The notes beneath the pieces are model-generated. The model saw only the letters and a program-made list of their open reading frames with translations, ran no database searches and was not told where the DNA came from. The translations under genes were made by a program, and so were the position numbers. Positions 1,267-14,311 of a stretch of 64,000 bases of DNA are shown piece by piece; within the stretch, counting starts at the first letter, position 1, and each line of letters begins with the position of its first letter. The DNA lies in the sequence record OR067838.1, one strand, 5' to 3'. The stretch comes from Escherichia phage KKP 3954.

Positions 1267-1650
1267 TTACTGATAAGCCGGATCATTTGTTATATCAATC
1301 CAATGAGATAAATTAATTTTATTTTTTGCTTTCATTTTCTCGATCAAACGTTCGGCTAATGTCTCGGAACGAATATAAACGTTTTCGCTAAAATCTTGCC
1401 CCGTTTCATCGTCGATCATCTCGCGATATTCAATTTTCCCGATAAACGCGTGATTCAGCGCATAAGTTTTACCCGTGTACCAATTATGTAAATGAATCTC
1501 GCATTTATAATCATCGCTATAACCTTCGGTTGTTCTAACTTCAACCAGATCGCCTTTAAACACTGACAAGCACCACATAGGATCACGGTCTACAGCGCCG
1601 TTAAAGTCTTTACCGTTTACAGTCGCTGCCAGGTTGATGATATTGCTCAT
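1267..1650 (-). CDS. Hypothetical early protein
   Basis: ORF track 1267..1725; start moved to ATG at 1650 with AGGAA Shine-Dalgarno (SD); TTGACA-17-TATTAT promoter upstream. Confidence 0.55.
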   Translation of the reverse strand: MSNIINLAATVNGKDFNGAVDRDPMWCLSVFKGDLVEVRTTEGYSDDYKCEIHLHNWYTGKTYALNHAFIGKIEYREMIDDETGQDFSENVYIRSETLAERLIEKMKAKNKINLSHWIDITNDPAYQ

Positions 1651-1696
1651 GGTGATTCCTCGTTTACCGTTTAAAATTGTTTGCCCTACGTGATAA

Positions 1697-1725
1697 ATAA
1701 TAATGTAAGCGTGATCCGGTGTCAA
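1697..1725 (-). promoter_or_regulatory. Sigma70-like early promoter (TTGACA, 17 nt spacer, TATTAT)
   Basis: Consensus -35 and -10 hexamers read on minus strand upstream of gene 1267..1650. Confidence 0.5.
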
Positions 1726-2033
1726 TAGGTAGAATTGTAAAGATTTGATAGTTTATTCCTTTGATGTTTTGTTGTTTGATAGGCATTAGTTATCAATATA
1801 TAGCGGGGTCTTCCGGTGATTATCTTCCCCTGCTTCCAGGTGCCGCCCGTTCAATAAGTATAACAAAAAACAGAACAAAAACAAGTCCTGTTTTTCTTAT
1901 TTTTAAAACCAGTTGCCAACCGTTTCCAATAGGTCACTGACTACCAGGACAACACTGATCAGCACATATTCAACTATGAAGGGGATAAGCGCCAGCGTCG
2001 CTACTATGATCCCCATTGTGATGATTACCTTTC

Positions 2034-2324
2034 TCATTGTTGGCGGCTTACGTAGGCTTTACCGTTTACGGTCATCGGTATGGCCTCAAGGTCTGGATCT
2101 TCCTTAAGGTCGCGTGCAAGCTCACCGCAGCGGATACCCTCGAATCCGTGGTATTCTGTCTCGCCGTCCTTGAAAGTTTTAGCGGCAAGGCATAGGCGAT
2201 AATTAACACCGATCCGGTTTACTGCGTTGATGTCGGTTAGCGTGATAGATTCCGGCAACTCATTAGCCATTGCAGGCGCGTTAATACCAACAACCAGGGC
2301 AACTACTGCGATCATCTTTTTCAT
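2034..2324 (-). CDS. Small secreted or periplasmic protein (N-terminal signal peptide)
   Basis: ORF track; N-terminus MKKMIAVVALVVGINAPAMA is signal-peptide-like; SD present. Confidence 0.6.
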   Translation of the reverse strand: MKKMIAVVALVVGINAPAMANELPESITLTDINAVNRIGVNYRLCLAAKTFKDGETEYHGFEGIRCGELARDLKEDPDLEAIPMTVNGKAYVSRQQ

Positions 2325-2379
2325 GTTGTTTAACCTCTTCCTATTGCGTTTAATGGGGCGTTACCGCCCTGTTTATGGT

Positions 2380-2616
2380 TTATTGATTGATGTTATAATG
2401 AAAATTATTTTCTTCAATAGCTTTTAAAATAAAAGCCGTGATCGCTTTCGTGTCTACTTGTTCGAACGTATCAGAATAGCACCAATAATAATCATCCCCT
2501 ACTTTCGGCGGGTAAACCTGGACAAGGAGATCGCCACCTGGTTGATCTATAAGCTCAACATGCAAGCCGGATGATTCAGCGGTTTTAACGGCGTTTAATA
2601 CTGTTGCAATACTCAT
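2380..2616 (-). CDS. Hypothetical early protein
   Basis: ORF track; ATG start; GC hairpin leader upstream. Confidence 0.55.
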   Translation of the reverse strand: MSIATVLNAVKTAESSGLHVELIDQPGGDLLVQVYPPKVGDDYYWCYSDTFEQVDTKAITAFILKAIEENNFHYNINQ

Positions 2617-2660
2617 AATCTTTCCCTTTCTGATGTGGGGCGTTGCCGCCCCTTTGTTGA

Positions 2661-2960
2661 TTAGATCGCTGTTTCCAGTAGTTCGGCTAACGTCTTACCG
2701 CCTGATAGTTGGTCTAACGTTTGCTCTTCTGGCAAGAAATTAGCTGATATTAAACCGACTTGATTCCCTTTGTGCCAGTTAGCCTGGCGGATGATTCCAT
2801 CCTTTAAGGATTTTACCGCCATTGTGCAACCGTCGCCAAATGATTCATTTTTATGGTCCATCACTTCATAAGCGCCCAGCTTGCTGCTGTTAGGCACCAT
2901 TAACGCGAATACATCACCAACAACCAGTTTTTCTACGGTAACAATAGCGATAGTTTCCAT
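2661..2960 (-). CDS. Hypothetical early protein
   Basis: ORF track; ATG start; promoter and GC hairpin leader at about 2975-3040. Confidence 0.55.
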   Translation of the reverse strand: METIAIVTVEKLVVGDVFALMVPNSSKLGAYEVMDHKNESFGDGCTMAVKSLKDGIIRQANWHKGNQVGLISANFLPEEQTLDQLSGGKTLAELLETAI

Positions 2961-3041
2961 TTTACTTTCCTCATTATCGGCGGCACCATTGCCGCCCTAC
3001 GTGGTAAATATTAGCACACTGGCGATCTGTGTCAATACTTT

Positions 3042-3428
3042 TTATTCAATATAAATCAAATTATCTTCACCAATGTAAGCCGACACGTTCGGCATAAACT
3101 TAGCTGCATTGGTTAGGCGGTTCGCCGTGTTAGTGGTGTATATTTCAGGGCGATCCCAAAAGCCTACGCCGTGACTGTTACGGGTAAAATGTAAATCATT
3201 CCCGATCTGGTTGGCTGTTGCGCCGTCGCTCATTGCCTCAGAGATAGCGGCAAGATTAGCATTAATAAAGGCTGTTACATCCTGGGCGATCCGTTCGTCC
3301 GCGCTAGGAGAAAAATCATAATCGTCTAAGTTATCAATAAAATTACCTTCATGATCCCTTGCTGATTCAGCAAAAATAAAGGCTTCTTTATAACCGTTGA
3401 TGATTTCAATAATGATTTCTGTTTTCAT
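3042..3428 (-). CDS. Hypothetical early protein
   Basis: ORF track 3042..3446; probable ATG at 3428; overlaps upstream gene by about 22 nt. Confidence 0.5.
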   Translation of the reverse strand: MKTEIIIEIINGYKEAFIFAESARDHEGNFIDNLDDYDFSPSADERIAQDVTAFINANLAAISEAMSDGATANQIGNDLHFTRNSHGVGFWDRPEIYTTNTANRLTNAAKFMPNVSAYIGEDNLIYIE

Positions 3429-3642
3429 GCTGTATACGCTCGACAATAATAATAGTTTGCGGGATCTCGTTTTCTACTACTAACAAGGCTTTTTTCTGTG
3501 TGATAGATATTTTAACACGTTGTAAAGTAGCGGTAAAATCTTTCATTTCATTATGCGCGGATTTAGTACAATGCCAGATCTCAGGTTTACCAACTTGCAA
3601 GCCGCGTAAAAATTCCGTTTTACCTGTCTTATTCGTGATCAT
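3406..3642 (-). CDS. Hypothetical early protein
   Basis: ORF track 3406..3651; ATG at 3642. Confidence 0.5.
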   Translation of the reverse strand: MITNKTGKTEFLRGLQVGKPEIWHCTKSAHNEMKDFTATLQRVKISITQKKALLVVENEIPQTIIIVERIQHENRNHY

Positions 3643-3652
3643 TTGTTTCACC

Positions 3653-3757
3653 TTAGCCGATACCGTGGGAAGATAGGATCATGTTAGCCATAGTTGCAAC
3701 CACTCCAACCGATAACGCCAGGCCCACTATTACAACCGTGAAAATTTTCTCTAACAT
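3653..3757 (-). CDS. Hydrophobic micro-protein (34 aa, single predicted TM segment)
   Basis: Not in ORF track (under 60 aa); ATG 3757 behind early promoter and leader; translation MLEKIFTVVIVGLALSVGVVATMANMILSSHGIG. Confidence 0.4.
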   Translation of the reverse strand: MLEKIFTVVIVGLALSVGVVATMANMILSSHGIG

Positions 3758-3838
3758 GATTCTACCCTCATTAATGGGCGTTGCCTTATTGCCCCGCCCT
3801 ACGAAATACATTCTACCCGATTTATAATTGTTGTCAAA

Positions 3839-4108
3839 TTATTTTTTCAAGCTTGACCACTCAAAACACGGGGCGATCTCGTTAAAACTTGTACCCTGTA
3901 AAGCACATAATTTTTTAGCAATAGCCGCCGTAACCTGGCGTTGAACGCGCGGATCTGCTACTGATTGGAGAAAGTAGGCGGTTTTATATGTGATCATGCT
4001 TTCGCCTGTTTCCTTGTTAACATGATGCACTATTTTAGCCTTATCATCTTTTACCAGGATGTAACCGGATTCGATGGCCTTGATTGCAACGTCCAATGAT
4101 ATTTTCAT
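3839..4108 (-). CDS. Hypothetical early protein
   Basis: ORF track; ATG start; hairpin leader upstream. Confidence 0.55.
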   Translation of the reverse strand: MKISLDVAIKAIESGYILVKDDKAKIVHHVNKETGESMITYKTAYFLQSVADPRVQRQVTAAIAKKLCALQGTSFNEIAPCFEWSSLKK

Positions 4109-4154
4109 GATTTACCTCTTTATTGACGGCGGGGATTACTCCCCGCCTCATTAA

Positions 4155-4325
4155 TTACTCTTCATCGTCGCCGTTATAGTATTCAATGCCGTTTTCATCG
4201 GTTACGGTGATATTAACGCCACCGATAGCAACACGATCACGGGCAAACGTCATGGCTTCATTTAAATCTTCAGACCAAAAAATATTGTGACCTTTGCGCG
4301 ATACATAAAACATAGTCGGGATCAT
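4155..4325 (-). CDS. Hypothetical early protein (about 56 aa)
   Basis: ORF track 4155..4409 begins inside the leader hairpin (translated as HIGRRNGP); start moved to ATG 4325. Confidence 0.5.
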   Translation of the reverse strand: MIPTMFYVSRKGHNIFWSEDLNEAMTFARDRVAIGGVNITVTDENGIEYYNGDDEE

Positions 4326-4410
4326 GATTTGTTTCTCTTCTGTTGTGAGCGGTGGACCATTCCGCCGCCCTATGTGGTAAACTTTACTACGTTGTTTGCG
4401 TGCTGTCAAA

Positions 4411-4695
4411 TTATTTTTTAATGTTTTGCCCTACAAAATTAATCATTTCCTTAAGCTGTCTCTCTGTCATGATCGTACCTGGTAATTCCTCTTTAATTTC
4501 TTGCGGTAAATAGATATTACCGTGCCAGGTTAACAAACAACCGTTTTGATCTTCGCAGATAGAATAAGAAAACATCCACTCGCAATCATTTTCAAGCTCC
4601 CAAAAACACAAAAAGTCTTCTTTCCCTAAGTTTTCAACGGTTAAGCATAATCCGCGACGTGCTGCATAATTAGTTAGGCTTTTTGTGATCTTCAT
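4411..4695 (-). CDS. Hypothetical early protein (Cys-rich)
   Basis: ORF track; ATG start; promoter and hairpin leader at 4700-4770. Confidence 0.55.
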   Translation of the reverse strand: MKITKSLTNYAARRGLCLTVENLGKEDFLCFWELENDCEWMFSYSICEDQNGCLLTWHGNIYLPQEIKEELPGTIMTERQLKEMINFVGQNIKK

Positions 4696-4755
4696 GATTT
4701 TTCTCTCTTCTTGTGAGCGGCATCATTGCCGCCCTACGAGATACACTTTACCAGA

Positions 4756-4884
4756 TTAAGCGGACTTGTCAAACTGTTTTTTCTTTTTCTTTGCTTCTAA
4801 CCGTCTAAGGTTACGGCTTGACTTATTGCGCAAGGCGCTTAGATCGTCGTACCCTTTCCATGCTTGCATATCTTTCGGATTCAT
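4756..4884 (-). CDS. Small basic protein (42 aa)
   Basis: Not in ORF track; SD AAGGGGA then ATG 4884; lysine-rich C-terminus. Confidence 0.4.
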   Translation of the reverse strand: MNPKDMQAWKGYDDLSALRNKSSRNLRRLEAKKKKKQFDKSA

Positions 4885-4893
4885 GTTATCCCC

Positions 4894-5055
4894 TTACTTG
4901 TTAGCCGGATTATATGCCAGGACCGCGCCGCTTGCTTTCACGCTTTCCGCTTCATAATTGCGCAAGTCTTCTTCTGTAAGATTGAGCGCGATCACTTCCT
5001 CGATCTCAACGTCAGCGGCAAGGGCGATCTCTTTGATAATGTCTGTTGTTTTCAT
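4894..5055 (-). CDS. Small acidic protein (53 aa)
   Basis: Not in ORF track; SD AAGGTG then ATG 5055; stop lies in the SD of the next gene. Confidence 0.4.
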   Translation of the reverse strand: MKTTDIIKEIALAADVEIEEVIALNLTEEDLRNYEAESVKASGAVLAYNPANK

Positions 5056-5065
5056 GGTATGCACC

Positions 5066-5185
5066 TTATAAGATGATTAATAAGATAGTGACAACGAAAG
5101 CGATTATACTGATGGCAAATGTCATCTTTTTACCTTCGGATACTGCCGGATTTTGTACCGTGTATTCTACTGTGTATTTGCTCAT
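5066..5185 (-). CDS. Hydrophobic micro-protein (39 aa, C-terminal TM segment)
   Basis: Not in ORF track; SD GAGAGGA then ATG 5185; behind promoter and leader at about 5200-5280. Confidence 0.4.
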   Translation of the reverse strand: MSKYTVEYTVQNPAVSEGKKMTFAISIIAFVVTILLIIL

Positions 5186-5283
5186 CGTGTAATCCTCTCG
5201 TTTGCTTTGGGAACTATTCCCGCCGCCCTATGAATTAAATATACACTATCTCAAAATGATTGCAAGCCTTTTTCTAAATTATT

Positions 5284-5568
5284 TTATGCAGTAAACAAAC
5301 CATCATTTACAACGGCGGCGATGATCTCCCGTGCCATTGATTCAGGGAAAGGGGCGCTATAGTCCTGGCTTGTCTCGTTGGTATCAGTGATCCAATGATA
5401 AGCTAACGAGTAAACGCCTTTACTAATTGTTTTCAGTGAGATGATGATCACTCGATTAAGCTTATTGGTGAATGTTGCCGTTAATGTGTTACCCTCCTGC
5501 GTCATGTTAGACAAGTAAGCGGCATCATTAACCAGGGAAAACATTAGCACGGTGTTAGCTTTACTCAT
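5284..5568 (-). CDS. Hypothetical early protein
   Basis: ORF track 5284..5628; start moved to ATG 5568 after leader hairpin; SD GAGGA. Confidence 0.55.
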   Translation of the reverse strand: MSKANTVLMFSLVNDAAYLSNMTQEGNTLTATFTNKLNRVIIISLKTISKGVYSLAYHWITDTNETSQDYSAPFPESMAREIIAAVVNDGLFTA

Positions 5569-5695
5569 GATTTCATCCTCAAAGGGGGCGCGGCACCATT
5601 GCCGCCCTACACGATAACTATAACACAATATAAAGCAGGATCAACTTTTATTTTTCCACGGTGTTAGTTTGTTAATCATTGGTGATAAATAACGT

Positions 5696-5854
5696 TTACC
5701 AACGTAAAACAAGTACGCCAACTGATGCAACGGCGGCGATCTCATGTAAGGAGGAAGGTCGCGCGGTGTCATAGTAGGTACCGATAATAGCAATAGCGGC
5801 AACGGCGGCAATATCGGTAATGATTTTTTCTTGTTTTGTTGTGATAGTGGTCAT
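5696..5854 (-). CDS. Hydrophobic small protein (52 aa)
   Basis: Not in ORF track; ATG 5854 behind promoter and leader at about 5870-5930. Confidence 0.4.
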   Translation of the reverse strand: MTTITTKQEKIITDIAAVAAIAIIGTYYDTARPSSLHEIAAVASVGVLVLRW

Positions 5855-5939
5855 AATGTTTTTCTCTTTTATGTGGTCGGGAACTATTCCCGCCCTATGC
5901 GATACATCTTATCAGACCTGGTTATGGTGTCAACCATTT

Positions 5940-6125
5940 TTAAAGATATTTTATATTAATAACGTTTTCAGGTTTAACCTTGTTGTGATGTGCATCAACA
6001 TAGATCAGACCATCGTCAGAAAAGCCCAGGATCACGCCCTGCGCAATAAAACCGTATTCGTCACGGTAACGCACGGCTATTTTTAATGTTGCGTTGTAGG
6101 CTGTTTTAAGCTCGTTTAAAGTCAT
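5940..6125 (-). CDS. Hypothetical early protein
   Basis: ORF track; ATG 6125 with SD AGGGGAT. Confidence 0.55.
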   Translation of the reverse strand: MTLNELKTAYNATLKIAVRYRDEYGFIAQGVILGFSDDGLIYVDAHHNKVKPENVINIKYL

Positions 6126-6180
6126 CTGTGTTTATCCCCTGCATGTAAAAAGAAAGGGCGCTTGATGCGCCCTTGTTATG

Positions 6181-6327
6181 TTAATCCTCTAAATCCATCC
6201 AATTATATTTGTCACTCTTCCCGCGCTTTGTTTTATTACGCTTATCGCCTTTGCGGATCACTTCCTCGTTCCAGGCCTTGCGGATCTTGGAAGATTGAAT
6301 TTTTTCTGCGCGATTAGATGTATTCAT
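6181..6327 (-). CDS. Small basic protein (48 aa)
   Basis: Not in ORF track; SD GAGGAAACA then ATG 6327; behind promoter and leader at 6340-6400. Confidence 0.4.
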   Translation of the reverse strand: MNTSNRAEKIQSSKIRKAWNEEVIRKGDKRNKTKRGKSDKYNWMDLED

Positions 6328-6406
6328 TTTGTTTCCTCTTCATATGAGCGGCACCATTGCCGCTATATTGTTAATTTAAACTGTTTTGTAAAATTGTCAA
6401 GGTTTA

Positions 6407-6760
6407 TCATTCATAAGAGCAAGCAAGGATCACGCCTGCAATATAAAGCCAATAATTTTCCCTTTCTCGTTGGATTTTATCATCGCTGCTATTCTCTTTA
6501 ATGTATCCCCAGGATGTTAACAAGCGATCAATTTCCCAATATTCGAAAGCGATATTGATATCTGATGGCAAACCTTGTAACCATGATGCAAGTGCTTTAA
6601 CAATACTATAATTAAAACGTGATTGGTTATCAGGGTACCAATACTCGGAATTAAAACGGCGCATCAATTCCGCGATCTTCTCTTTTTCGGTTGTAATACC
6701 GTAATCATTAAAATCGATAGCGGCAAGGATGTACTCTTTAATTGCATTTTGTGCTTTCAT
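6407..6760 (-). CDS. Hypothetical early protein
   Basis: ORF track; ATG 6760; promoter and leader at 6775-6835. Confidence 0.55.
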   Translation of the reverse strand: MKAQNAIKEYILAAIDFNDYGITTEKEKIAELMRRFNSEYWYPDNQSRFNYSIVKALASWLQGLPSDINIAFEYWEIDRLLTSWGYIKENSSDDKIQRERENYWLYIAGVILACSYE

Positions 6761-6850
6761 GGTCTTTCTCTCTTTTTGAGCGGGAACTATTCCCGCCCTA
6801 CGTGTAACAGTTTACTAAAAATTAAATCCGTGTCAAGCCTTATTTTGTTA

Positions 6851-7063
6851 CTACCATTTGGTATACCCTGTCTCAATGTTAGTAAACACTGTTATCCCGT
6901 CCTGGCGTTCACTCATTAACATACAAGGCGCTAACATCCTTTCTACTGCCTTGCACTCATTATAAGCGGCGGTGATGTCTCCTGCTGCCTTGTCTTCTGT
7001 GGTGAATGTATCGTTTACGTAAACCTGACCAGCAACAACGGCGACAATAGCAAAAGTAATCAT
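6851..7063 (-). CDS. Hypothetical early protein (hydrophobic N-terminus)
   Basis: ORF track; ATG 7063; promoter with -10 inside the hairpin loop at 7085-7135. Confidence 0.55.
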   Translation of the reverse strand: MITFAIVAVVAGQVYVNDTFTTEDKAAGDITAAYNECKAVERMLAPCMLMSERQDGITVFTNIETGYTKW

Positions 7064-7137
7064 GATGTTTCCTTGTTAATAGTGGTTTCTCTTCTCTATA
7101 GCGCCCATTATAAGGCGCTATAACGAAAAGTCAACGA

Positions 7138-7305
7138 TTATTTTTTAAGGCTTAAAGTACCTAACTTGTCAGCATGACGCAGACCAGGGAAGATCCATTT
7201 GCCTGATTCATCTTTTACCGGGGCTTTAAACGTTGCGCCCAGGTTGGCGGCGTTAACTTTACGTGCAACGTTGCGAGCGGCTTCACGGGTAGCGAAAGTG
7301 ATCAT
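7138..7305 (-). CDS. Hypothetical early protein (about 55 aa)
   Basis: ORF track 7138..7389; start moved to ATG 7305 with SD GAGGAAACA. Confidence 0.5.
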   Translation of the reverse strand: MITFATREAARNVARKVNAANLGATFKAPVKDESGKWIFPGLRHADKLGTLSLKK

Positions 7306-7395
7306 GATGTTTCCTCTTCTCTTTGTTAGGCGGTGGGCTATTCCACCGCCTTGATGAATACAGTTTACTTTATTTTTGCAGTATTGCAAGCGGTT

Positions 7396-7611
7396 TTATG
7401 AAATAAATGTCAAAGTAAAATCATAATCTTTTGACAGTTTATATTGCACCTTGTTACCGTATATGTCACCTTTACGTAAAGATCCACGGATACCGATAAC
7501 ATCCTTCACGTCTTTTAAATTTTTCACGCCTGTAATGTCTTTGTTGAAATACTCGTCATCTGAAAATAAAACTTGCTTTGCATTTTTTAACAAGGTGCGG
7601 ATATTAGCCAT
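7396..7611 (-). CDS. Hypothetical early protein
   Basis: ORF track; ATG 7611; hairpin leader at about 7630-7660. Confidence 0.55.
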   Translation of the reverse strand: MANIRTLLKNAKQVLFSDDEYFNKDITGVKNLKDVKDVIGIRGSLRKGDIYGNKVQYKLSKDYDFTLTFIS

Positions 7612-7701
7612 CGTGATAATCTCTCTTCTGTTGTGAGCGGCACCATTGCCGCCCTATGTAATATATTCTACTCTTTTTCTTTCCGGTGTCAACAATCTTT
7701 T

Positions 7702-7929
7702 TCAGATTAATTCGTCCAGGCATAACAAGCGATCAACGTTGAGATCGGTTAGGCTAATCGTCGGCACCTGGTAGGATTCGATATACTCAACGCTTGCATA
7801 TTCCCCAAAATTAGCAACAGCCCAGTTATTCAAGATTTCACATACATCATTAATCTTTTTGTTTGTTACAACTGCTACAACCTGGGAATAGCCAACGGTG
7901 CCGGATACGCGAACAATATTGATAGCCAT
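7702..7929 (-). CDS. Hypothetical early protein
   Basis: ORF track; ATG 7929; hairpin leader at 7953-7972. Confidence 0.55.
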   Translation of the reverse strand: MAINIVRVSGTVGYSQVVAVVTNKKINDVCEILNNWAVANFGEYASVEYIESYQVPTISLTDLNVDRLLCLDELI

Positions 7930-7983
7930 AATCTTTAATCTCTCTGTTGTGAGCGGGAAACCATTTCCCGCCCTATGCGATAC

Positions 7984-8011
7984 ATCTTACACTAATTTTA
8001 AACGTTGTCAA
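7984..8011 (-). promoter_or_regulatory. Early promoter of the conserved family (TTGACA, 16 nt spacer, TAAGAT), followed by GC stem-loop leader at 7953-7972
   Basis: Hexamers read on minus strand; same architecture in more than 20 copies. Confidence 0.55.
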
Positions 8012-8020
8012 CTGTTTTTA

Positions 8021-8260
8021 TTACATTCCAACCATCGCGGCACGGATCGCAGTAGTGCTATATTTGAAACCGTCTGGAGTTTTATCTTGTCCAGTTTGTT
8101 CCAGAAAAAGCATCATATCCCGCGCCGCATCATTACGATTAGCATTAGCGTTAATAAAATCCAAGGCCAACCGATACAATGATTCATCGTTATTAATCCA
8201 AAGGCTTACATTCCAATGAGTTTTGTTTTTGTGACCGTTGTAAGTTTTAGTAATAGCCAT
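8021..8260 (-). CDS. Hypothetical early protein
   Basis: ORF track; ATG start; promoter and leader upstream. Confidence 0.55.
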   Translation of the reverse strand: MAITKTYNGHKNKTHWNVSLWINNDESLYRLALDFINANANRNDAARDMMLFLEQTGQDKTPDGFKYSTTAIRAAMVGM

Positions 8261-8349
8261 GATGATAATCTCTCTTTGAATGAGGCGGGAACTATTCCCG
8301 CTCTCTATGTAATACAGTTTACTCTTTTTATTCGTGCTGTCAATGCTTT

Positions 8350-8715
8350 TTATAAATCTTTTTTACGTTTTACATCGCTTGCATGACTGTATACAGTGAT
8401 CCCATTATCACGGCAAAAACGGGAAAGATACGCGCCACGTGAAAACTCTTTACCTTCCATATTAATAACCTTGCTAAATTCTTCCAGGGCGACGGTATCA
8501 AAATGATCACCATAGCCATATTGAAACGGAACGTTAACCACCTCGATCAATTTACCGCCGATCTCAACGTCAACCATTAAAGAAAAATATGTGTTACCGT
8601 AGGACTGTTGAAACCAGCGACGGGCGCTAATATGCACCGCCTCAATGCTGGATAATTCAATTTTAGCCGTGTTAGCCAGGGTAGCATAAGAGGAAACATT
8701 AATATTACTAGCCAT
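8350..8715 (-). CDS. Hypothetical early protein
   Basis: ORF track 8350..8733; ATG 8715 preferred (SD AAGGT); the 8733 ATG abuts the hairpin without an SD. Confidence 0.5.
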   Translation of the reverse strand: MASNINVSSYATLANTAKIELSSIEAVHISARRWFQQSYGNTYFSLMVDVEIGGKLIEVVNVPFQYGYGDHFDTVALEEFSKVINMEGKEFSRGAYLSRFCRDNGITVYSHASDVKRKKDL

Positions 8716-8803
8716 GATGATAACCTTTTTCATTGTTGGCGGGAAACCACTTCCCGCCCTATGTGGTAAACTATACCAGAAGTTTAAACAGTGTCAACCG
8801 TTT

Positions 8804-9166
8804 TTATTCGTAAATTTTACCGCTTTCGGCCCATACCATAACGCGGCGCATACTATCCCAAGTGTTTTGATCCAGGTTTAAGCCGTGCAACTCTTCGGTA
8901 CTTCCCAGACCAGGTACCGCCTTGTTGTAAGTTGCATATAAGCGCCCTTGATACTCATATGCCAGGGTGAGATCCGTTTGAATCATCTTTTTAAGCATAG
9001 CATTAAGCATCATATTAGCGGCATGTTGATCACGTTTTAGCGGTAACATATCAATAAGGGCGCGATAAGCTGAAACATGAATATCAACCGTTTCACGTGG
9101 TAAATTTTTCATATCATCGCGGAAAGATACCAGATTAAACATGATAGTATTGATTTGCTTGCTCAT
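8804..9166 (-). CDS. Hypothetical early protein
   Basis: ORF track; ATG start; leader hairpin at 9188-9209. Confidence 0.55.
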   Translation of the reverse strand: MSKQINTIMFNLVSFRDDMKNLPRETVDIHVSAYRALIDMLPLKRDQHAANMMLNAMLKKMIQTDLTLAYEYQGRLYATYNKAVPGLGSTEELHGLNLDQNTWDSMRRVMVWAESGKIYE

Positions 9167-9220
9167 TGTGTTACCCTTTTTTGTTTTGGCGGGGAAGTAT
9201 TCCGCCGCCCTATGTGATAC

Positions 9221-9248
9221 ATCTTATCAGATTAAAAAACGTTGTCAA
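9221..9248 (-). promoter_or_regulatory. Early promoter of the conserved family (TTGACA, 16 nt spacer, TAAGAT)
   Basis: Hexamers on minus strand, followed by stem-loop 9188-9209 and SD+ATG of gene 8804..9166. Confidence 0.55.
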
Positions 9249-9256
9249 GAATATTT

Positions 9257-9352
9257 TTAGAAAATAATAACCGCTACTACAATCCAAAATGGAACGGCTA
9301 GAATGATACCGTTAATCGTTCCAACCGTCAAGCTATTTTCTTTATTAATCAT
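9257..9352 (-). CDS. Hydrophobic micro-protein (31 aa)
   Basis: Not in ORF track; SD AAGAGG then ATG 9352; translation MINKENSLTVGTINGIILAVPFWIVVAVIIF. Confidence 0.35.
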   Translation of the reverse strand: MINKENSLTVGTINGIILAVPFWIVVAVIIF

Positions 9353-9434
9353 TGTAAGCCTCTTGTATAATTTCACTATGAGCGGCACCATTGCCGCCCT
9401 ACGTGGTAAATATTATGCTAGTGGCGGCGATATG

Positions 9435-10254
9435 TCAAAGACTATTTTCAAAGTTTTCTAGGGCGATCCTTTTTTCTTCCTCTGTCGGCTGATAATCAGG
9501 AAAAGCATCAACACACAACAACGGCGGGATCTCTTCATACTCTTCCTCTTCCGTTGTCTCCTCGTCTTCCTCCTGGGCTATGGCTGCAATTTTGGCTAAT
9601 TTTCTCTCCGCTTGAATCAGTTTACCATCAAATACGTTTTTTGCCATGTTGTAAGCGGTCCAGGTGATGCGCTTACTTTCTAGTGCTTCATCAAGCGCCG
9701 CTATCTTGCTGGGGTATTCATCCAGGACACGAAAAGCCGGATCAACTTTGTATACAAGGGATTATCTTTCGCACCGTCGCTCGCATCTTCCGCACTGGAT
9801 AAATCAGCGTTACCATTTGCCAGCCAACCAGGGCGCACATAACGCGCTTTTACGTTGCCGTTACTACGTGCTAATCTGTTACCTATTTGCTCCCCGCTAT
9901 AGCCCGTGGATTCATCGACAAGATAATCAGGAATGATGCGCGGATCATCTGCTTCATGTTTTACCCAAGACTGGATCACATATTCGCGGCCCATATTAAC
10001 CACCTTTTTTTCAACAATCGGCATACTTTAAAAAGACTTGCTGAATCCTTGCAAGGGTAGAAAGATGTACGATAGTCACGTACGCCAACCTTGCGGATCT
10101 CGATGTTCTCGCATGTTGTTTGATCAAAAATATTTATTTCATCACGCCCCCTTATATAAACATAATGGGGATGTATTAACGCATACTTTGCTAATCTGTA
10201 AAAAGCGTTATCCTTGAACGCGATCACGTGACCTTTTAATTTGATGTAAAACAT
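9435..10254 (-). CDS. Hypothetical early protein with acidic C-terminal domain; one gene split into three track ORFs (9976..10254, 9701..10024, 9435..9647) by two apparent 1-nt deletions (T7 run 10005-10011; GTATAC 9750-9755)
   Basis: Only the first ORF has promoter, leader and SD (ATG 10254); the internal ATGs lack an SD; reading continues without stops after a -1 shift at each junction; C-terminus is Glu/Asp-rich. Confidence 0.5.
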
Positions 10255-10330
10255 TCTACCACCTTACAAATAGCGGGAACTATTCCCGCTTTATGTAACA
10301 TATTAACAAATTATTCGTTAATGTCAAGCC

Positions 10331-10603
10331 TTAAAGCAAAAACGCTACATCTTGCGCTTTTAGTGTAGTATCAACCATTTTTGGGCTTTTATAATCAACA
10401 AAACGCGCGGTTTTTTCAATAGCAAAACCGAGATAATCTTGTTTATTGAATTTACATTCTTTCTTAAATGTTTCCCGCGCCACGGTGATCGCTGCGTCCA
10501 GGGATAAACGCCCGTCAATGTTGATATTTGCGAAAGATCCGCCACCGCTCATAGGTTTACCAGTGGTGCCAGCTACGATCATTGTTGCGCTATATGATGC
10601 CAT
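10331..10603 (-). CDS. Hypothetical early protein
   Basis: ORF track 10331..10663 starts inside the leader hairpin; start moved to ATG 10603. Confidence 0.5.
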   Translation of the reverse strand: MASYSATMIVAGTTGKPMSGGGSFANINIDGRLSLDAAITVARETFKKECKFNKQDYLGFAIEKTARFVDYKSPKMVDTTLKAQDVAFLL

Positions 10604-10626
10604 GATTATAATCTCTCTTCTGTTGT

Positions 10627-10650
10627 GAGCGGCTGGACCATTCCGCCGCC
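10627..10650 (-). other. Conserved GC stem-loop in the 5-prime leader of early transcripts (example copy; family consensus GGCGGCAATGGTGCCGC with compensatory variants)
   Basis: More than 20 copies between promoter -10 and SD; stem changes are compensatory (e.g. CGGGAACTATTCCCG, CGGGAAACCATTTCCCG). Confidence 0.6.
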
Positions 10651-10661
10651 CTATGTGATAC

Positions 10662-10689
10662 ATCTTATCAGGTTGTTGGTTGTTGTCAA
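10662..10689 (-). promoter_or_regulatory. Early promoter of the conserved family (TTGACA, 16 nt spacer, TAAGAT)
   Basis: Hexamers on minus strand upstream of leader hairpin 10627-10650. Confidence 0.55.
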
Positions 10690-10695
10690 TACTTT

Positions 10696-10893
10696 TTATT
10701 CTATTCCTGCAATCTGATTAACGCGTTTGCATTTTGTAGCGTGCTGGTCTTCTGTAATTACTCCCATTTCTAACAGTGAATCAATGAAAGATAAAACCGT
10801 TTCATGATCATCCTGGGGATGACTGAACTCAGTAAAACCGTTTACTACCACGTTTATTTGTCCAGCTTTCGCCACAATGTGCAATGTTGCCAT
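10696..10893 (-). CDS. Hypothetical early protein (about 65 aa)
   Basis: ORF track 10696..10983; start moved to ATG 10893 after the leader hairpin; SD GGAG. Confidence 0.5.
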   Translation of the reverse strand: MATLHIVAKAGQINVVVNGFTEFSHPQDDHETVLSFIDSLLEMGVITEDQHATKCKRVNQIAGIE

Positions 10894-11080
10894 GATCTTA
10901 ACTCCAAATAGTGAGCGGCACCATTGCCGCGCTACGTGGTAAATATTATGCCGCCACCTGGCGAACGTCAACCACTTTTTCAATCTTTTTTATTTTCTTT
11001 TTGCTTGCTATATATAAAGGAAAGGGCTATCATCTTTCTACCGCGCCAACCAGGGCGCACAACAAAGAAAGGGCGACACC

Positions 11081-11347
11081 ATGACAACTACTACATTACA
11101 CCTTATGCACTCATTGGGCTGGCAAGGCGGCACGGTGCACCAGGTAGCAAGCGCAACAGGCTTAAAGGTTGAAACCGTTCTCAACCTGGGCGATCATAAA
11201 GTGGAAGAGATAGAACATTTTGATCCGTTCGCTGATGGTTATTTATGGGCTTGCAGTGGCGGCGGGGAAAGCAAGATCCCGCCAGCGGCGCGGGGCGATA
11301 TGCATTTTTGGTTAGGTGTCCTTTCCTGGCAAGAAAACAAAAAATAA
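11081..11347 (+). CDS. Hypothetical protein in a GC-rich island (atypical composition, possible moron)
   Basis: ORF track; only plus-strand gene in the first 18 kb; local GC clearly above the genome background. Confidence 0.45.
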   Translation: MTTTTLHLMHSLGWQGGTVHQVASATGLKVETVLNLGDHKVEEIEHFDPFADGYLWACSGGGESKIPPAARGDMHFWLGVLSWQENKK

Positions 11348-11349
11348 TC

Positions 11350-11378
11350 TTGACAAGCCCAGGGATCGGGCTTATACT
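11350..11378 (+). promoter_or_regulatory. Near-consensus sigma70 promoter (TTGACA, 17 nt spacer, TATACT) followed by a GC-rich structured segment of about 110 nt
   Basis: Hexamers seen directly; same GGG(A)CTTATACT -10 context recurs at 46759-46787. Confidence 0.5.
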
Positions 11379-11719
11379 GTTTTACATACAGAAGAGGAAG
11401 CGCCACCCCACGGCGTAAAGGCGGGGCTAACATACCAGGGCGCTGGTTGGAAGGTTGATCGCCGGTAGGCTGGGCGCTATATATTTGTAAAGAAATGTAA
11501 AGATAAAATAATCGCTTGCTTTCCTGGCTGGATCTGTTATTCTTATTACATGGCGAGGGGATACGGGAACGCGAGACAAACACCGCCCCTGCGCGTCATT
11601 CTCTAAATGAGAATGATTATCATTTACCTTATTGAATAAGAATCAATCTCATTTATAAACTTAAATGCGAATCATTATCATTTGCATTTCCATATGAGAA
11701 CTCTTCTCATTCTCACCTG

Positions 11720-11960
11720 CATAAATTTTTGTAAACTTTAAATTTTGCTTTTGTATTTTCATTTTTGTAAAAGCAAAAAAACTTTAAATACTGTGGGCGC
11801 GCAAAATTTTTAAAATTTTCCTTGACTTTTGAGTTTTGTTTTGTATCTAACATTTTAAGATAATTTTCCTAAACTTTAAATTTTGGTTTTCAACTTTCAC
11901 TTTTGTAAATTCTTAAAAAGTTTAAATAATTTGAGGAATTTTTGAGATAACAGGTAGTGG
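11720..11960. repeat. AT-rich region with two imperfect direct repeats of about 65 bp (each with AAACTTTAAATTTTG and TTTTGTAAA) and a TTTGAGATAAC direct repeat
   Basis: Repeats read directly in the sequence; no ORFs; lies between the two minus-strand gene clusters. Confidence 0.45.
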
Positions 11961-12060
11961 TAATTTGAGATAACCTTTAATCTTGTTGGTAAACCTTCAG
12001 GAACCCACCTAGATCGAATCCTAGAAAGGTCAACTGAAAAAGACAAGTGTTTGTATAGGA

Positions 12061-12096
12061 CAAAATAATAGGCTCTCTACGGTGCTGTAGGAGCCT
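12061..12096 (-). terminator. Rho-independent terminator downstream of the NADAR gene
   Basis: Hairpin GGCTCTCTAC..GTAGGAGCC followed by T-rich tract on minus strand. Confidence 0.5.
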
Positions 12097-12151
12097 TATT
12101 TCTGTGCTACAAAGTGGCACCTTTGTTCTAAAAATGAAAAAAGTTAAAATA

Positions 12152-12694
12152 TCACAAATATCGTCTTTGCGGTATTTTGTCTGGGAAAAGTATTTCGATC
12201 AGTTTATTATGATATTTGCCTAAAAGATTCTGCCCTTTCCAAGTGGCAGGGTTGAGCACCCCTGGTTCATACATCCCCATTCCAATTCCGTAAACCTTAT
12301 CGTAGGGGCTTGCTTCAACAAACGTTTTGTATTGGTAAAGGTGCAAGTCTGCATACAAATCTGGATTCTGTATATATTTCAAGCATAAACCTCGCATAAC
12401 AATACGCTCACGGTTCTCTTCCCACACGTTGTTATCAAAATCCGACACTGCCCTACCCATACGTTTGTAATAAGCTTGTTTCCTCTCGTTGTCACGTATA
12501 GTCGAGTGATCAAGGATAGCTGCTGCAATCGCATGATCCTTGAACAGCAAAGCCTTACGCCACATCATGTATTGCTCAACACAACAGAAAGTCTCATTGT
12601 AACCTGGTTCGGTTTCTGTAAAGGGTGCAATATACCAATTACTAAAAACATCTTTATGTGAAAAGAAGAATACATATTCGTCAGTTATTCTCAT
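12152..12694 (-). CDS. NADAR-domain (YbiA-like, DUF1768) protein; candidate ADP-ribose-processing enzyme
   Basis: 180 aa; FFF..FSNW..PF, EQ..M..KA.LF and NP.L motifs typical of the YbiA/NADAR fold. Confidence 0.6.
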   Translation of the reverse strand: MRITDEYVFFFSHKDVFSNWYIAPFTETEPGYNETFCCVEQYMMWRKALLFKDHAIAAAILDHSTIRDNERKQAYYKRMGRAVSDFDNNVWEENRERIVMRGLCLKYIQNPDLYADLHLYQYKTFVEASPYDKVYGIGMGMYEPGVLNPATWKGQNLLGKYHNKLIEILFPDKIPQRRYL

Positions 12695-12870
12695 TTTTTC
12701 ATACCTTCTAAGACTTTAGCTTGCCCGTCTTGAAAAGCTTTCATCAGAACTATCTTAAGATTGACTTCCAAACGTTCTTCATCCTCTTTATAACAATCCA
12801 ACACTGCTTTAAGTTCATCATAGTGGTTCAGAATAGGTTTAAAGATTTCATGATCTGCTAAACGTGCCAT
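12691..12870 (-). CDS. Hypothetical protein (about 59 aa)
   Basis: ORF track 12691..12906; start moved to ATG 12870 with SD AAGGAG. Confidence 0.5.
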   Translation of the reverse strand: MARLADHEIFKPILNHYDELKAVLDCYKEDEERLEVNLKIVLMKAFQDGQAKVLEGMKK

Positions 12871-12883
12871 AGTTTCTCCTTTG

Positions 12884-13249
12884 TTAATCCATCCACCAGT
12901 AGCCATAAACTGCGTCTGCGTCGATGAGTTTGTGTTTGTTGTTCCGCATGTAGTCTAAGATAAGTAGACGTTTATTGTATCTAGAGAGATTATGACCCTC
13001 TTTTCCGCCATAGTCAAAATATTTTGCAAGATCTTTACACTCAAACAAAATCAGTTCGGGAGTTTCTTCACACTGGTCTGTCTGGTACACTTGACGAATG
13101 ATCATGTATACATCGTCGTCTTCCGCTAAATGCTCTACTGGTCCACATCCAGCAGGAACAAATTCATAGTCCCATCTGATCAGATGTTTCTCTACTGCTT
13201 CAAAGAAGTCCATTCTTTCGTTGCGCATAATTTGAACGTCAACTAACAT
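12884..13249 (-). CDS. Hypothetical protein
   Basis: ORF track; ATG 13249 with SD AGGAGGA; contains an in-frame GTATAC at 13106-13111 with no break. Confidence 0.55.
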   Translation of the reverse strand: MLVDVQIMRNERMDFFEAVEKHLIRWDYEFVPAGCGPVEHLAEDDDVYMIIRQVYQTDQCEETPELILFECKDLAKYFDYGGKEGHNLSRYNKRLLILDYMRNNKHKLIDADAVYGYWWMD

Positions 13250-14234
13250 GTTTCCTCCTGTAATGTTCCACCATAAAGTTTATAAATGTTTTGTATTGAG
13301 GCCATGCAAGATAACTCTACTGTTTCTGTGTAGCCATCTGGCATAGAATATTTGCTCACTGCTTCCGTGTGAAGGACACGCTTACAACGCTTTTCTGCAT
13401 CTTTGCATTGCTTCACAGTAGGGAAGTGCCACACTTGGCTCTGTTTCATAGTAAACACATTATGACTATTTTGTTCTTTGATACGGCGATCACTACTATT
13501 GGCAATACCAAACTTCAAAGCACAGAGAAGATTTTGTTCATCGTAGATATAGTTGATGTATGCCTGTTGTTGTGTATGCCCTTTACACTGCGGACAACCA
13601 CGCCCCTTATGTAATAAGTGGTCAGCATTCCCTATTTGCTCCCCGTGATCCTTACATCCATATTTAAACTCTCCTGTTGAGGAAGGTTTACTAATCCACT
13701 CCATCCAGATATATCCTTTACTTTCTAAACCTTTTCTCACCTTGTAAGTGATCTGATCTTTTGTGTAACGGTAAACTCTAGTATACAACGACAAGGGATA
13801 ATCCCTTTTTTAAGATCGTTCCCTGCAATGTAAAATTTACCATCACACACTCCTGCTTGTACGTATTCATCATGAGAACAAACAGGACATTCAACCATCC
13901 AGAGAATATGACTCCCTTTACGTTTGCCTGTATTGGTGAAAATAGTACCAGGTTTAAACTTTCCTGTGTTAATGAAATCTTTTATGTGCTGATCGTCTGT
14001 CTTACCTCCTTTCCCAACTCCTTTCCCAATTGCACAGACAGGACAACCAGCACGACCAGTTTTAAAGTTTTTAAATGTTGTAGTGTTCCATTCATGAGCA
14101 TACTGACAACGATTGATCATTTTCGTGTGTTGTCCTGTAAACGGCTCAACAATTCCAATAATCTCAATCCCTTTAGCAGCAGCAATAGGTTGACACTCTT
14201 CAATATATTGTTCAATACTCTTCTTTACTGGCAT
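13243..14234 (-). CDS. Zn-finger plus T5orf172 (MUG113-like) domain protein; split into track ORFs 13737..14243 and 13243..13794 by an apparent 1-nt deletion at GTATAC 13781-13786
   Basis: N-terminal CxxC pairs; C-terminal LKFGIANSSDRRIKEQN resembles the T5orf172 core; the two ORFs join after a -1 shift inside the overlap. Confidence 0.45.
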
Positions 14235-14311
14235 ATCTAACAATTATCTCCCTATTAAACTGAAATCAATATAACAAAACCCGCCGAAGCGGGTTTAATA
14301 AGGGAGCCTTA

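Follow-up and report, generated by a model that had tools for sequence, protein, structure and literature searches.

In the primary origin of phage T7, an AT-rich segment follows the tandem promoters phi1.1A and phi1.1B; oriF and oriG of T4 are each made up of a promoter and a downstream DNA unwinding element. The lambda-type origin has four phased, partly palindromic iterons beside an AT-rich segment. Repeat Region 3 of phage T5, reportedly described by Heusterspreute in 1987, is said to be the region of the injection stop signal. First-step transfer has its calculated shear point in this region; the palindromes and the DRC/DRE repeats there were considered uninterpretable, with mention of neither Fur nor other phage families, and the T5 origins were placed by electron microscopy near the genome center, outside Repeat Region 3 (Davison, bioRxiv 10.1101/866236). 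The replisome of the rV5 group is T7-like in combining a family A polymerase with a gp4-type primase-helicase, and a skew analysis aimed at the origin of these phages revealed transcription switches only (PMC3606486). The open-access literature yielded no origin mapping or transcriptome for the Stephanstirmvirinae or Vequintavirinae, and in the searchable literature neither a replication origin nor any other internal cis-acting site has been mapped in the rV5/phi92 supergroup, phages that are widely used as therapeutic coliphages and Salmonella phages.

The 64-kb window (the whole stretch of DNA analyzed, 64,000 nucleotides of Escherichia phage KKP 3954) belongs to the genus Phapecoctavirus (phAPEC8-like, Stephanstirmvirinae, ~150 kb), and positions 11300–12200 share 97% identity with phAPEC8 and many other coliphages. 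The − strand carries most genes between 1 and 18 kb, and GC skew within the window tracks gene orientation. To the left of the repeats that are the subject of this study lie ~35 small genes. Every one of them has an individual sigma70 promoter and, in its 5′ leader, a conserved hairpin; many have individual terminators as well. To the right lies a compact leftward operon encoding a NADAR protein, a homing endonuclease (GIY-YIG/CapR) and an AAA ATPase. The 800-bp non-coding gap reported in the initial annotation is borne out: 804 bp (11348–12151) separate the small-early-gene block from the leftward NADAR operon, most relatives annotate no gene there, and the ORFs present are unconserved and no longer than 49 aa. 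In the first 50 kb of a collinear genome the locus is the sole internal non-coding gap of more than 300 bp, the other large gap being terminal, which makes it the natural candidate for an internal site acting in cis.

The locus forms a 1.1-kb module that runs rightward in the order ORF88, P1, RNA1, CpxR-consensus box, P2, RNA2, four Fur boxes, repeats, TTTGAGATAA boxes and terminator. The module reads on the + strand, opposite to the direction of the flanking genes. Its features are as follows.

11005–11033, + strand: P0, a sigma70-like promoter, TTGCTA-17-TATCAT, 5′ of ORF88 (consensus scan)
11081–11347, + strand: ORF88, 88 aa, with an HTH-like stretch, GGTVHQVASATGLKVETVLNL, found by inspection
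11350–11378, + strand: P1, a near-consensus sigma70 promoter, TTGACA-17-TATACT, matching 11/12 consensus positions
11385–11470, + strand: RNA1, a nearly invariant structured element, GCCACCCCACGGCGTAAAGGCGGGGCTAAC...GGAAGGTTGATCGCCGG (alignment and consensus fold)
11487–11501, + strand: CpxR-consensus match, GTAAAGAAATGTAAA, a perfect GTAAA-N5-GTAAA, centered ~55 nt upstream of the P2 start
11516–11543, + strand: P2, a sigma70-like promoter, TTGCTT-16-TATTCT, read from the sequence
11548–11625, + strand: RNA2, a hairpin-rich leader whose 5′ start, ACATrGCGrG, is like that of early-gene leaders
11606–11624, 11635–11653, 11664–11682 and 11693–11711, no strand: four palindromic Fur-box-like sites with 29-bp spacing
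11724–11795, + strand: repeat unit 1, with L box AAACTTTAAATTTTGCTTTT (from 11733), TTTTCATTTTTGTAAA and R box AAAAACTTTAAATA (11775–11790)
11796–11861, + strand: degenerate middle unit, with GCGCGC plus a AAAATTTTTAAAATTTT palindrome and a TTGACT-type L box (11822)
11855–11863, + strand: TTAAGATAA, which replaces the R box of the middle unit
11862–11933, + strand: repeat unit 2, with L box at 11871, TTTCACTTTTGTAAA at 11895 and R box AAAAAGTTTAAATA (11913–11928)
11941–11951 and 11964–11974, + strand: two TTTGAGATAAC boxes, a set of three with TTAAGATAA at 11855
12070–12096, no strand: bidirectional hairpin terminator, AGGCTCTCTACGGTGCTGTAGGAGCCT, annotated as a terminator in phAPEC8 and ASO2A

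The order of the module is kept in Justusliebigvirus, in the PsgM04F clade and in further 146–153-kb contigs, and its layout recurs in GC-richer contigs that are putatively Certrevirus (PhiTE-/CR3-like) and PVP-SE1-like. In one contig the whole non-coding block is inverted relative to the ORF88 homolog, which shows that the non-coding part forms an independent unit. ORF88 is the sole + strand gene within a block of − strand genes; it belongs to no Pfam family, and its homologs, at 39–98% identity, adjoin the module in other phages. The sequence of P0 is conserved in Justusliebigvirus. The predicted promoters P1 and P2 hold their position in 13 divergent module loci. The P1 spacer contains a GC-rich hairpin. 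In P2, a GCTTGC −35 and a TAT..T −10 are conserved in the alignment of module loci; the −10 matches only 3/6 consensus positions and the consensus scan did not list this promoter. The 29-nt core motif of RNA1 is found exactly in 12 viral contigs, and the consensus fold contains one covarying pair, A-U in 7 sequences and G-C in 6; RNA1 matched no Rfam family at E<5. The CpxR-consensus box (consensus from PMC4846824) occurs once in 64 kb and at the same place in every module locus, and since at least one such site arose by chance in 26/100 shuffles, a single site alone is not significant. RNA2 contains a terminator-like hairpin (11595–11617), and the CATTC at the 3′ end of RNA2 pairs with GAATG of the first Fur box. 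The terminator at 12070–12096 closes both the module and the leftward NADAR operon and is itself conserved, with 2.2% variable sites. The Fur-box array (11604–11711), P1 and P2, RNA1 and RNA2, and the CpxR box are the most informative neighbors of the repeats, and all lie outside the coordinates of the initial annotation.

The initial annotation described two tandem imperfect direct repeats of about 65 bp, together with a number of submotifs. All of these submotifs lie where they had been placed: AAACTTTAAATTTTG at 11733 and 11871, TTTAAATA at 11783 and 11921, and TTTGAGATAAC at 11941 and 11964, each with only these two occurrences in 64 kb, and TTTTGTAAA at 11727, 11763 and 11901. The repeat is real, but the length given for it was too short. 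The two copies, 11724–11795 and 11862–11933, are 72 nt long and 81% identical, with 58/72 matching positions; 300 simulations matched for composition averaged 38.5 (sd 2.1) and never exceeded 45. The 64 kb contain four copies of the 11-nt core AAASTTTAAAT, where 0.48 are expected, and all four lie on the + strand inside the repeats, at spacings of 46/92/46 bp. The arrangement is tandem only in a qualified sense. TRF detected no tandem repeat array at the repeats, and the two good copies begin 138 bp apart; between them, at 11813–11846, lies a degenerate third copy that is 74% identical to the first 34 nt of the unit. A genuine head-to-tail triplet is present in Justusliebigvirus and in a distant ~146-kb contig (periods 75/67 and 67/74 bp). 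Because of this degenerate copy and the head-to-tail triplets of the sister lineages, the Phapecoctavirus array appears to be one of three ~69-bp units of which the middle one has decayed. Alignment of seven units from three clades gave a unit consensus of a left box, AAmTTkArmTTTTsnTTTTcAA, ~20 variable bases, and a right box, AAAAAsTTTAAATAa. The PsgM04F clade and distant ~146-kb contigs have retained three TTTGAGATA boxes. A scan of viral contigs with the 14-mer AAAAACTTTAAATA returned chance matches only.

The repeats are the most conserved part of the locus. Among six close Phapecoctavirus genomes, 3/216 sites (1.4%) vary in the repeats (11720–11935), with repeat unit 1 invariant, compared with 9–25% in the flanks. 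In the same six genomes the proportion of variable sites is 9.2% in RNA1, 12.5% in P2/RNA2, 15.7% in the Fur boxes, 18% in the spacer 3′ of the repeats, 16.2% in the NADAR gene and 12.5% in the early genes. Four Justusliebigvirus genomes give a similar picture, with 1.7% variable sites in the repeat units and 4–9.5% in the adjoining segments. In comparison with the PsgM04F clade, which is 72% identical, conservation is confined to discrete blocks with free spacers between them: the L boxes, TTTCAyTTTTGTAAA...R boxes, GCGCGC with the AAAATTTTTAAAATTTT palindrome, three (T/G)AGATAA boxes, and the terminator. Both L boxes have changed alike in that clade, from AAACTTTAAATTTTG to AACTTTAGAATTTG. 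Across the supergroup the position, copy number (2–3) and length (64–79 nt) of the units are kept, and each lineage has its own unit sequence, GATC-rich (AATACGATCT...TCGATCGAGAaCC) in the relatives of higher GC. Lineage-specific units whose copies change in parallel are the pattern expected of sites that co-evolve with a phage-encoded binding protein. Judged from these alignments, the repeats are a strongly constrained cis-acting DNA element, under selection stronger than that on the neighboring genes.

As the initial annotation had observed, the region is AT-rich. No other segment of the window is as poor in GC as positions 11721–11990 (23%; the runner-up has 27.8%), and duplex stability over 200 bp reaches its two lowest values in the 64 kb at 11803–12002 and 11595–11794, ~3.4 sd below the mean. 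Neither strand of the repeats folds better than its shuffled versions (z = +0.74 and +0.48), which leads us to reject a structured-RNA reading of the repeats and indicates that what is constrained is the DNA, or else an unstructured sequence, rather than an RNA fold. A permissive Rfam search of 10900–12300 gave nothing relevant (best E = 1.1), and no tRNA or tmRNA was detected. A-tracts in the repeats are not helically phased, as they would be in curved DNA; DnaA boxes and IHF sites occur in the module at background density only, and there is no GATC within the repeats. In PLSDB plasmids no origin-like match was obtained, the sole match being an rV5-like genome deposited as a 137.5-kb ‘plasmid’.

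The palindromes directly upstream of the repeats appear to be near-consensus Fur boxes and are predicted Fur sites. The site at 11609–11627 matches the Fur consensus GATAATGATAATCATTATC at 16/19 positions, as does a site at 46–64, where 0.06 such sites are expected, and the 7-1-7 core TGATAATnATTATCA is matched at 14/15 positions by inspection of the phage boxes. Sites with at least 13/19 matches to the consensus are enriched in the module and in a second ORF-free region, 1–1260. Among 5,426 E. coli genomes, the best match to the boxes lies 73 nt upstream of sitA, beside an MntR palindrome, and 21/25 positions are identical between Fur box 1 and the sitA promoter's Fur-box region; both Fur and MntR repress sitABCD.

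The same array, spacers included, is found at 84–87% identity over 55 bp in T5-like phages. In the T5-like phage saus47N the boxes are located at 9.5–9.7 kb of a 9,968-bp left terminal repeat, between paired DnaA boxes (TTATCCACA at 9406 and 9467) and TGTGCRAATCCGAC repeats, with one TTTGAGATA just past the end of the terminal repeat. In T5-like phages generally the array is within 300–450 bp of the terminal-repeat end. The saus47N array corresponds to T5 Repeat Region 3, the region holding the injection stop signal. Judging from these similarities, the Fur-box arrays are probably homologous in three unrelated groups of virulent enterobacterial phages: the T5-like, the phi92/phAPEC8-like and the rV5/PVP-SE1/CR3-like. 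In each the arrays border the block of genes expressed first, and they are accompanied by the CpxR box in the phAPEC8-like and rV5-like groups and by DnaA boxes in T5. ORF88 was considered as a palindrome-binding protein; the T5-like phages have the boxes and no ORF88 homolog, which weakens the case for ORF88 as a general box binder.

The TTGACT between the two good copies, taken in the initial annotation for a promoter-like element, proves to be the left box of the middle unit (11822) and is homologous to TTGAAC/TTGAAG of Justusliebigvirus. The would-be −10, TATCTA, lacks the invariant T at the last position (T6), the consensus promoter scan did not list the site, and the PsgM04F clade has TTGGTT...AAATCT in its place. 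A broader version of the same idea is that the repeats are an AT-rich cluster of sigma70 promoters and UP elements, on either strand, serving the neighboring genes. Besides the TTGACT, the scan would lend this some support, with 14 promoter-like sites in 10500–12800 against 5.5±2.6 expected, including TTTACA-18-CAAAAT (− strand, in both units) and TTTAAA-17-TAAAAT. However, the sites inside the repeats score only 9/12, TTGACT/TATCTA is not conserved, the first early gene leftward has its own promoter, and the + strand carries no gene downstream. Since the core motif is restricted, within the 64 kb, to the repeats, it is not a reused promoter type. A role as a promoter cluster is thus very unlikely, and the element is a functional DNA site, neither a chance repeat nor a promoter cluster.

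What this site does is most likely, and here we are tentative, to serve as an early replication origin of the T7/T4 type that is activated by transcription. Host RNA polymerase would start at the tandem promoters P1 and P2 and transcribe across the four Fur boxes into the three ~69-bp units, the least stable DNA of the region. The transcript, or the opening of the DNA by transcription, would then allow loading of the T7-like primase-helicase and polymerase of the phage. Assembly sites for a phage protein could be provided by the paired L and R boxes of the units and by the downstream TTTGAGATAA boxes, and host Fur (iron) and perhaps CpxR (envelope stress) could gate the transcription that reaches the repeats. 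This origin reading is suggested by repeats that are real, of a DNA type and more constrained than the neighboring genes, by two conserved predicted sigma70 promoters that point into the least stable DNA, which is the arrangement of a transcription-primed origin, by the T7-like replisome of this phage group, and by lineage-specific units that evolve in concert at the sole internal non-coding hub. By analogy, the four regularly spaced palindromic boxes abutting an AT-rich stretch recall the lambda origin. The lack of DnaA and IHF enrichment, of GATC in the repeats and of phased A-tracts argues against an origin, as does the absence of a recognizable initiator gene beside the module, where the neighbors encode NADAR, a homing endonuclease, an AAA ATPase and ORF88, which is without a family. 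Invariance over 216 bp also exceeds the needs of an unwinding element, the module converges on a terminator common to the oncoming operon, which would favor positive rather than negative supercoiling, and T5, the only studied phage with the same array, may by analogy point away from an origin given the central position of its own. A quite different possibility, which we regard as doubtful, is that the locus is a non-coding early transcription unit under the control of host signals and has no role in replication. P1 and P2 would then produce small RNAs, and with Fur off its boxes transcription would continue to the 12070 terminator and yield a longer read-through RNA, AU-rich and unstructured, with the repeats acting as RNA sites or decoys (Hfq, ProQ, RNase E) or as regulatory DNA. 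Such a unit would be consistent with the strong conserved promoters and the invariant RNA1, an RNA2 that starts with the leader of phage early mRNAs, the perfect and universally conserved CpxR-consensus box at about −55 of P2, the Fur boxes between P2 and the repeats, the conserved terminator at its end and a T-rich + strand (123 T vs 85 A). There is also a precedent in the related phage PhiTE, which expresses a functional repeat-derived non-coding RNA from another locus (PMC3475682). That antitoxin-mimic RNA, pseudo-ToxI, is absent from the module-bearing loci and from the module site, and is therefore no explanation of the module. An origin and a transcription unit explain the promoters, the RNAs and the terminator equally well, but the latter accounts less well for the DNA-type palindromes of the relatives: the units of the Certrevirus and PVP-SE1-like phages are DNA palindromes with GATC clusters (TCGATCGAGA), which are sensible as DNA and not as RNA. 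Moreover, the repeats themselves give no RNA structure signal, and the terminator-like hairpin of RNA2 may stop most transcripts 5′ of the repeats.

Two further explanations concern the entry and the packaging of the DNA. For Justusliebigvirus BME3, PhageTerm assigned a terminal repeat of 342 bp; this repeat contains Fur-like boxes and aligns with window positions 36–84, and several records begin or end at window positions 1–470. Together these place the module ~11.6 kb (7.7%) from the probable physical end. A long T5-like terminal repeat extending from the window start to the module finds no support, as no record contains a duplicate copy of these 11 kb. In a DNA-entry checkpoint of the T5 type, the incoming DNA would be held by host proteins (Fur in the present module; DnaA, with Fur-like boxes, in T5) once the first ~11.6 kb of small early genes had entered. 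This would account for the boxes and spacers held in common with T5-like phages, whose array lies at the shear point of first-step transfer, for the common order of palindromic boxes, direct repeats and TTTGAGATA, for a distance from the putative genome end of ~7.7% here and 7.9% in T5, and for an interval of ~35 small genes that each have a sigma70 promoter. It conflicts with the circularly permuted relatives: PhiTE, CB7 and rV5 are reported to be permuted, and Certrevirus phages, which also carry the module, would thus have no fixed first-entering end. The module furthermore has neither DnaA-box pairs nor DRD-type repeats, no record shows a long terminal repeat, and two-step transfer has never been reported for these phages. 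On balance such a checkpoint is unlikely, and a fuller form, in which the module is the counterpart of the T5 injection stop and, loaded with host proteins, couples entry or the start of replication to iron and envelope state, is decidedly so. The module could also be recognized by the terminase for packaging, as a large conserved non-coding repeat region whose box array in T5-like phages lies within 300–450 bp of the terminal-repeat end, and the GATC-rich units of some relatives resemble the P1 pac site. This is highly improbable: the BME3 termini map ~11.9 kb away, the coverage of CB7 has no peak, the surroundings contain no terminase gene, and the boxes are common to T5-like and rV5-like phages, whose terminases are presumably unrelated. 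The remaining probability belongs to functions that we have not thought of.

As a class description, the designation ‘candidate origin or control region’ given in the initial annotation holds, while origin function itself is not shown by any of the computations. Sequence comparisons suggest that the module is a control region, or one resembling an origin, in which host regulators are wired in an unusual way. In the open-access literature, an incomplete sample, neither the module nor its conservation is described, and the T5 palindromes are not identified as Fur boxes. As the one conserved internal non-coding region, the module offers a precise 250-bp target for mapping an origin or cis-acting site, and recognition of the T5 palindromes as near-consensus Fur boxes makes a 40-year-old question directly testable. 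If Fur and CpxR do gate the early program of these virulent phages, phage performance would depend on iron and envelope stress, a dependence that would be relevant to the gut and to phage therapy. If the checkpoint exists, the module would delimit a first-entering segment of ~11.6 kb, or 7.7% of the genome.

Among known systems, the plasmid iteron origins (P1 oriR, pSC101, R6K) resemble the module in having direct repeats that adjoin AT-rich DNA, in lineage-specific repeats with parallel copy change, and in the GATC clusters of some relatives. Several hallmarks of the classical iteron origins, to which the initial annotation's ‘iteron-like’ alludes, are nevertheless missing. Iteron arrays contain at least three direct repeats of ~17–22 bp, whereas the units here measure 72 nt (64–79 nt across the supergroup), are bipartite and are present in two good copies, or in two to three. 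No adjacent or enclosing Rep or O gene accompanies the module, no clusters of DnaA, IHF or GATC sites lie beside the repeats, and there is no similarity to PLSDB plasmids; the adjoining AT-rich candidate unwinding element, with the lowest GC and duplex stability of the 64 kb, is as in iteron origins. The lambda origin is approached by the four regularly spaced 19–21-bp palindromic boxes directly adjoining the AT-rich segment, and differs in that the boxes of the module match host Fur rather than an O-type initiator, have a 29-bp spacing and do not lie inside an initiator gene.

The Fur boxes of enterobacterial promoters (sitA, iucA) are matched by the phage sites at 16/19, 14/15 and 21/25 positions. 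The phage sites differ from these in forming an array of four at 29-bp spacing, without clear promoter overlap and in a virulent phage, and their consensus prefers GAGAAT over GATAAT. T5 Repeat Region 3 is alike in its AAATGAGAATnATTCTCATTT palindromes, arrayed at ~29–46-bp spacing and followed by direct repeats and a TTTGAGATA box, in being untranslated and highly conserved within its family, and in its location ~8% from a genome end, a putative one here, bordering the small-early-gene cluster. T5 has paired DnaA boxes (IRD′/IRC′) and nine TGTGCRAATCCGAC repeats, whereas the module has neither and carries L/R-box units instead. The T5 region also lies inside a 10-kb terminal repeat, while here the terminal repeat is apparently ~0.3 kb and 11 kb away.

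The T7 and T4 origins differ from the module in several respects. The module promoters are of the host sigma70 type, four Fur boxes and structured RNA stand between promoter and AT-rich DNA, and in place of 50–60 bp of simple AT-rich DNA there are 250 bp of nearly invariant repeat units. The module resembles these origins in its tandem promoters, here predicted, that read into the least stable and most AT-rich DNA of the region; its phage group is equipped with a T7-like family A polymerase and a gp4-type primase-helicase, and DnaA boxes would not be needed.

RNA1, the element directly 3′ of the predicted sigma70 promoter P1 in the control region, belongs to no Rfam family and is conserved from phAPEC8-like phages through CR3/PhiTE/PVP-SE1-like phages. 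It is a candidate for a new phage non-coding RNA. Features of the window, and of the comparison sequences L001 and L016, are as follows.

1-1260: second region without ORFs, in which Fur-box-like sites are abundant
46-64: match to the Fur consensus in that region, 16/19
228-248, 403-424 and 1000-1018: further Fur-box-like sites in that region
1300-10990, minus strand: many of the small early genes, with a sigma70 promoter followed by the conserved 5′ leader hairpin ACATAGGGCGGCAATGGTGCCGCTCA
11239-11583, minus strand: ORF annotated as phAPEC8 gp257, antisense to ORF88, P1, RNA1 and P2
11385-11470: RNA1, about 80 nt, almost invariant (GCCACCCCACGGCGnAAAGGCGGGGCTAAC...GGAAGGTgGATCGCCGG), behind a near-consensus promoter
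13243-14243, minus strand: GIY-YIG/T5orf172 and CapR homing-endonuclease-like gene, as two overlapping ORFs of 183 and 168 aa
L001 219-238, 1073-1092 and 3617-3636: example positions of the leader hairpin
L016 3364-3445: two tandem 41-nt repeats, TTAATG.GGCATAACTC..TTAATGAGT.G.TTATGACTCA, in Certrevirus-like relatives, with an equivalent stretch in L011, L015 and L026

In L032, a viral contig of 145,759 bp, an insertion lies within the 3′ part of RNA1. Read in module orientation, it is located approximately 200-900 nt beyond the core of RNA1, on the downstream side. It comprises an ORF that, by eye, resembles a free-standing homing endonuclease, together with a second, degenerate copy of RNA1 that has a promoter of its own. 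This arrangement fits a role of RNA1 as an invariant target sequence. The homing-endonuclease-like gene neighboring the module in the window is undivided in relatives (330-490 aa) and is split here.

The phAPEC8 gp257 ORF is probably a mis-call, because ORF88 on the plus strand (11081-11347) is the ORF conserved in distant phages. Among otherwise close Phapecoctavirus genomes, 25% of ORF88 sites are variable, and in some of these genomes ORF88 is more than 90% identical to the Justusliebigvirus allele, a pattern that suggests allele exchange at ORF88, adjoining the invariant non-coding element.

A perfect CpxR consensus, GTAAA-N5-GTAAA, is located at 11487-11501, upstream of P2, and is invariant in all module-bearing phages; another copy is found between two pre-early ORFs in the left terminal repeat of a T5-like phage (L007 4505-4519). 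RNA2, directly 3′ of P2, opens in the same way as the early-gene leaders. In phAPEC8 this leader is annotated as a "PHIRE promoter," but the hairpin has the look of a leader that is transcribed, not of a promoter.

The PLSDB E. coli "plasmid" CP057073.1 (137,565 bp) shows 71% identity to P2, RNA2 and the Fur boxes. Its size is that expected for an rV5-like phage, and the record is probably the genome of a virulent phage that was submitted as a plasmid. Within the module, the tandem 41-nt repeats of the Certrevirus-like relatives follow the GATC-rich units on the downstream side; these repeats are not ToxI-like.

The genome terminus probably either coincides with the start of the window or includes it. 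A direct terminal repeat of 342 bp has been reported for Justusliebigvirus BME3, and the ORF-free region at 1-1260 is its homologue.
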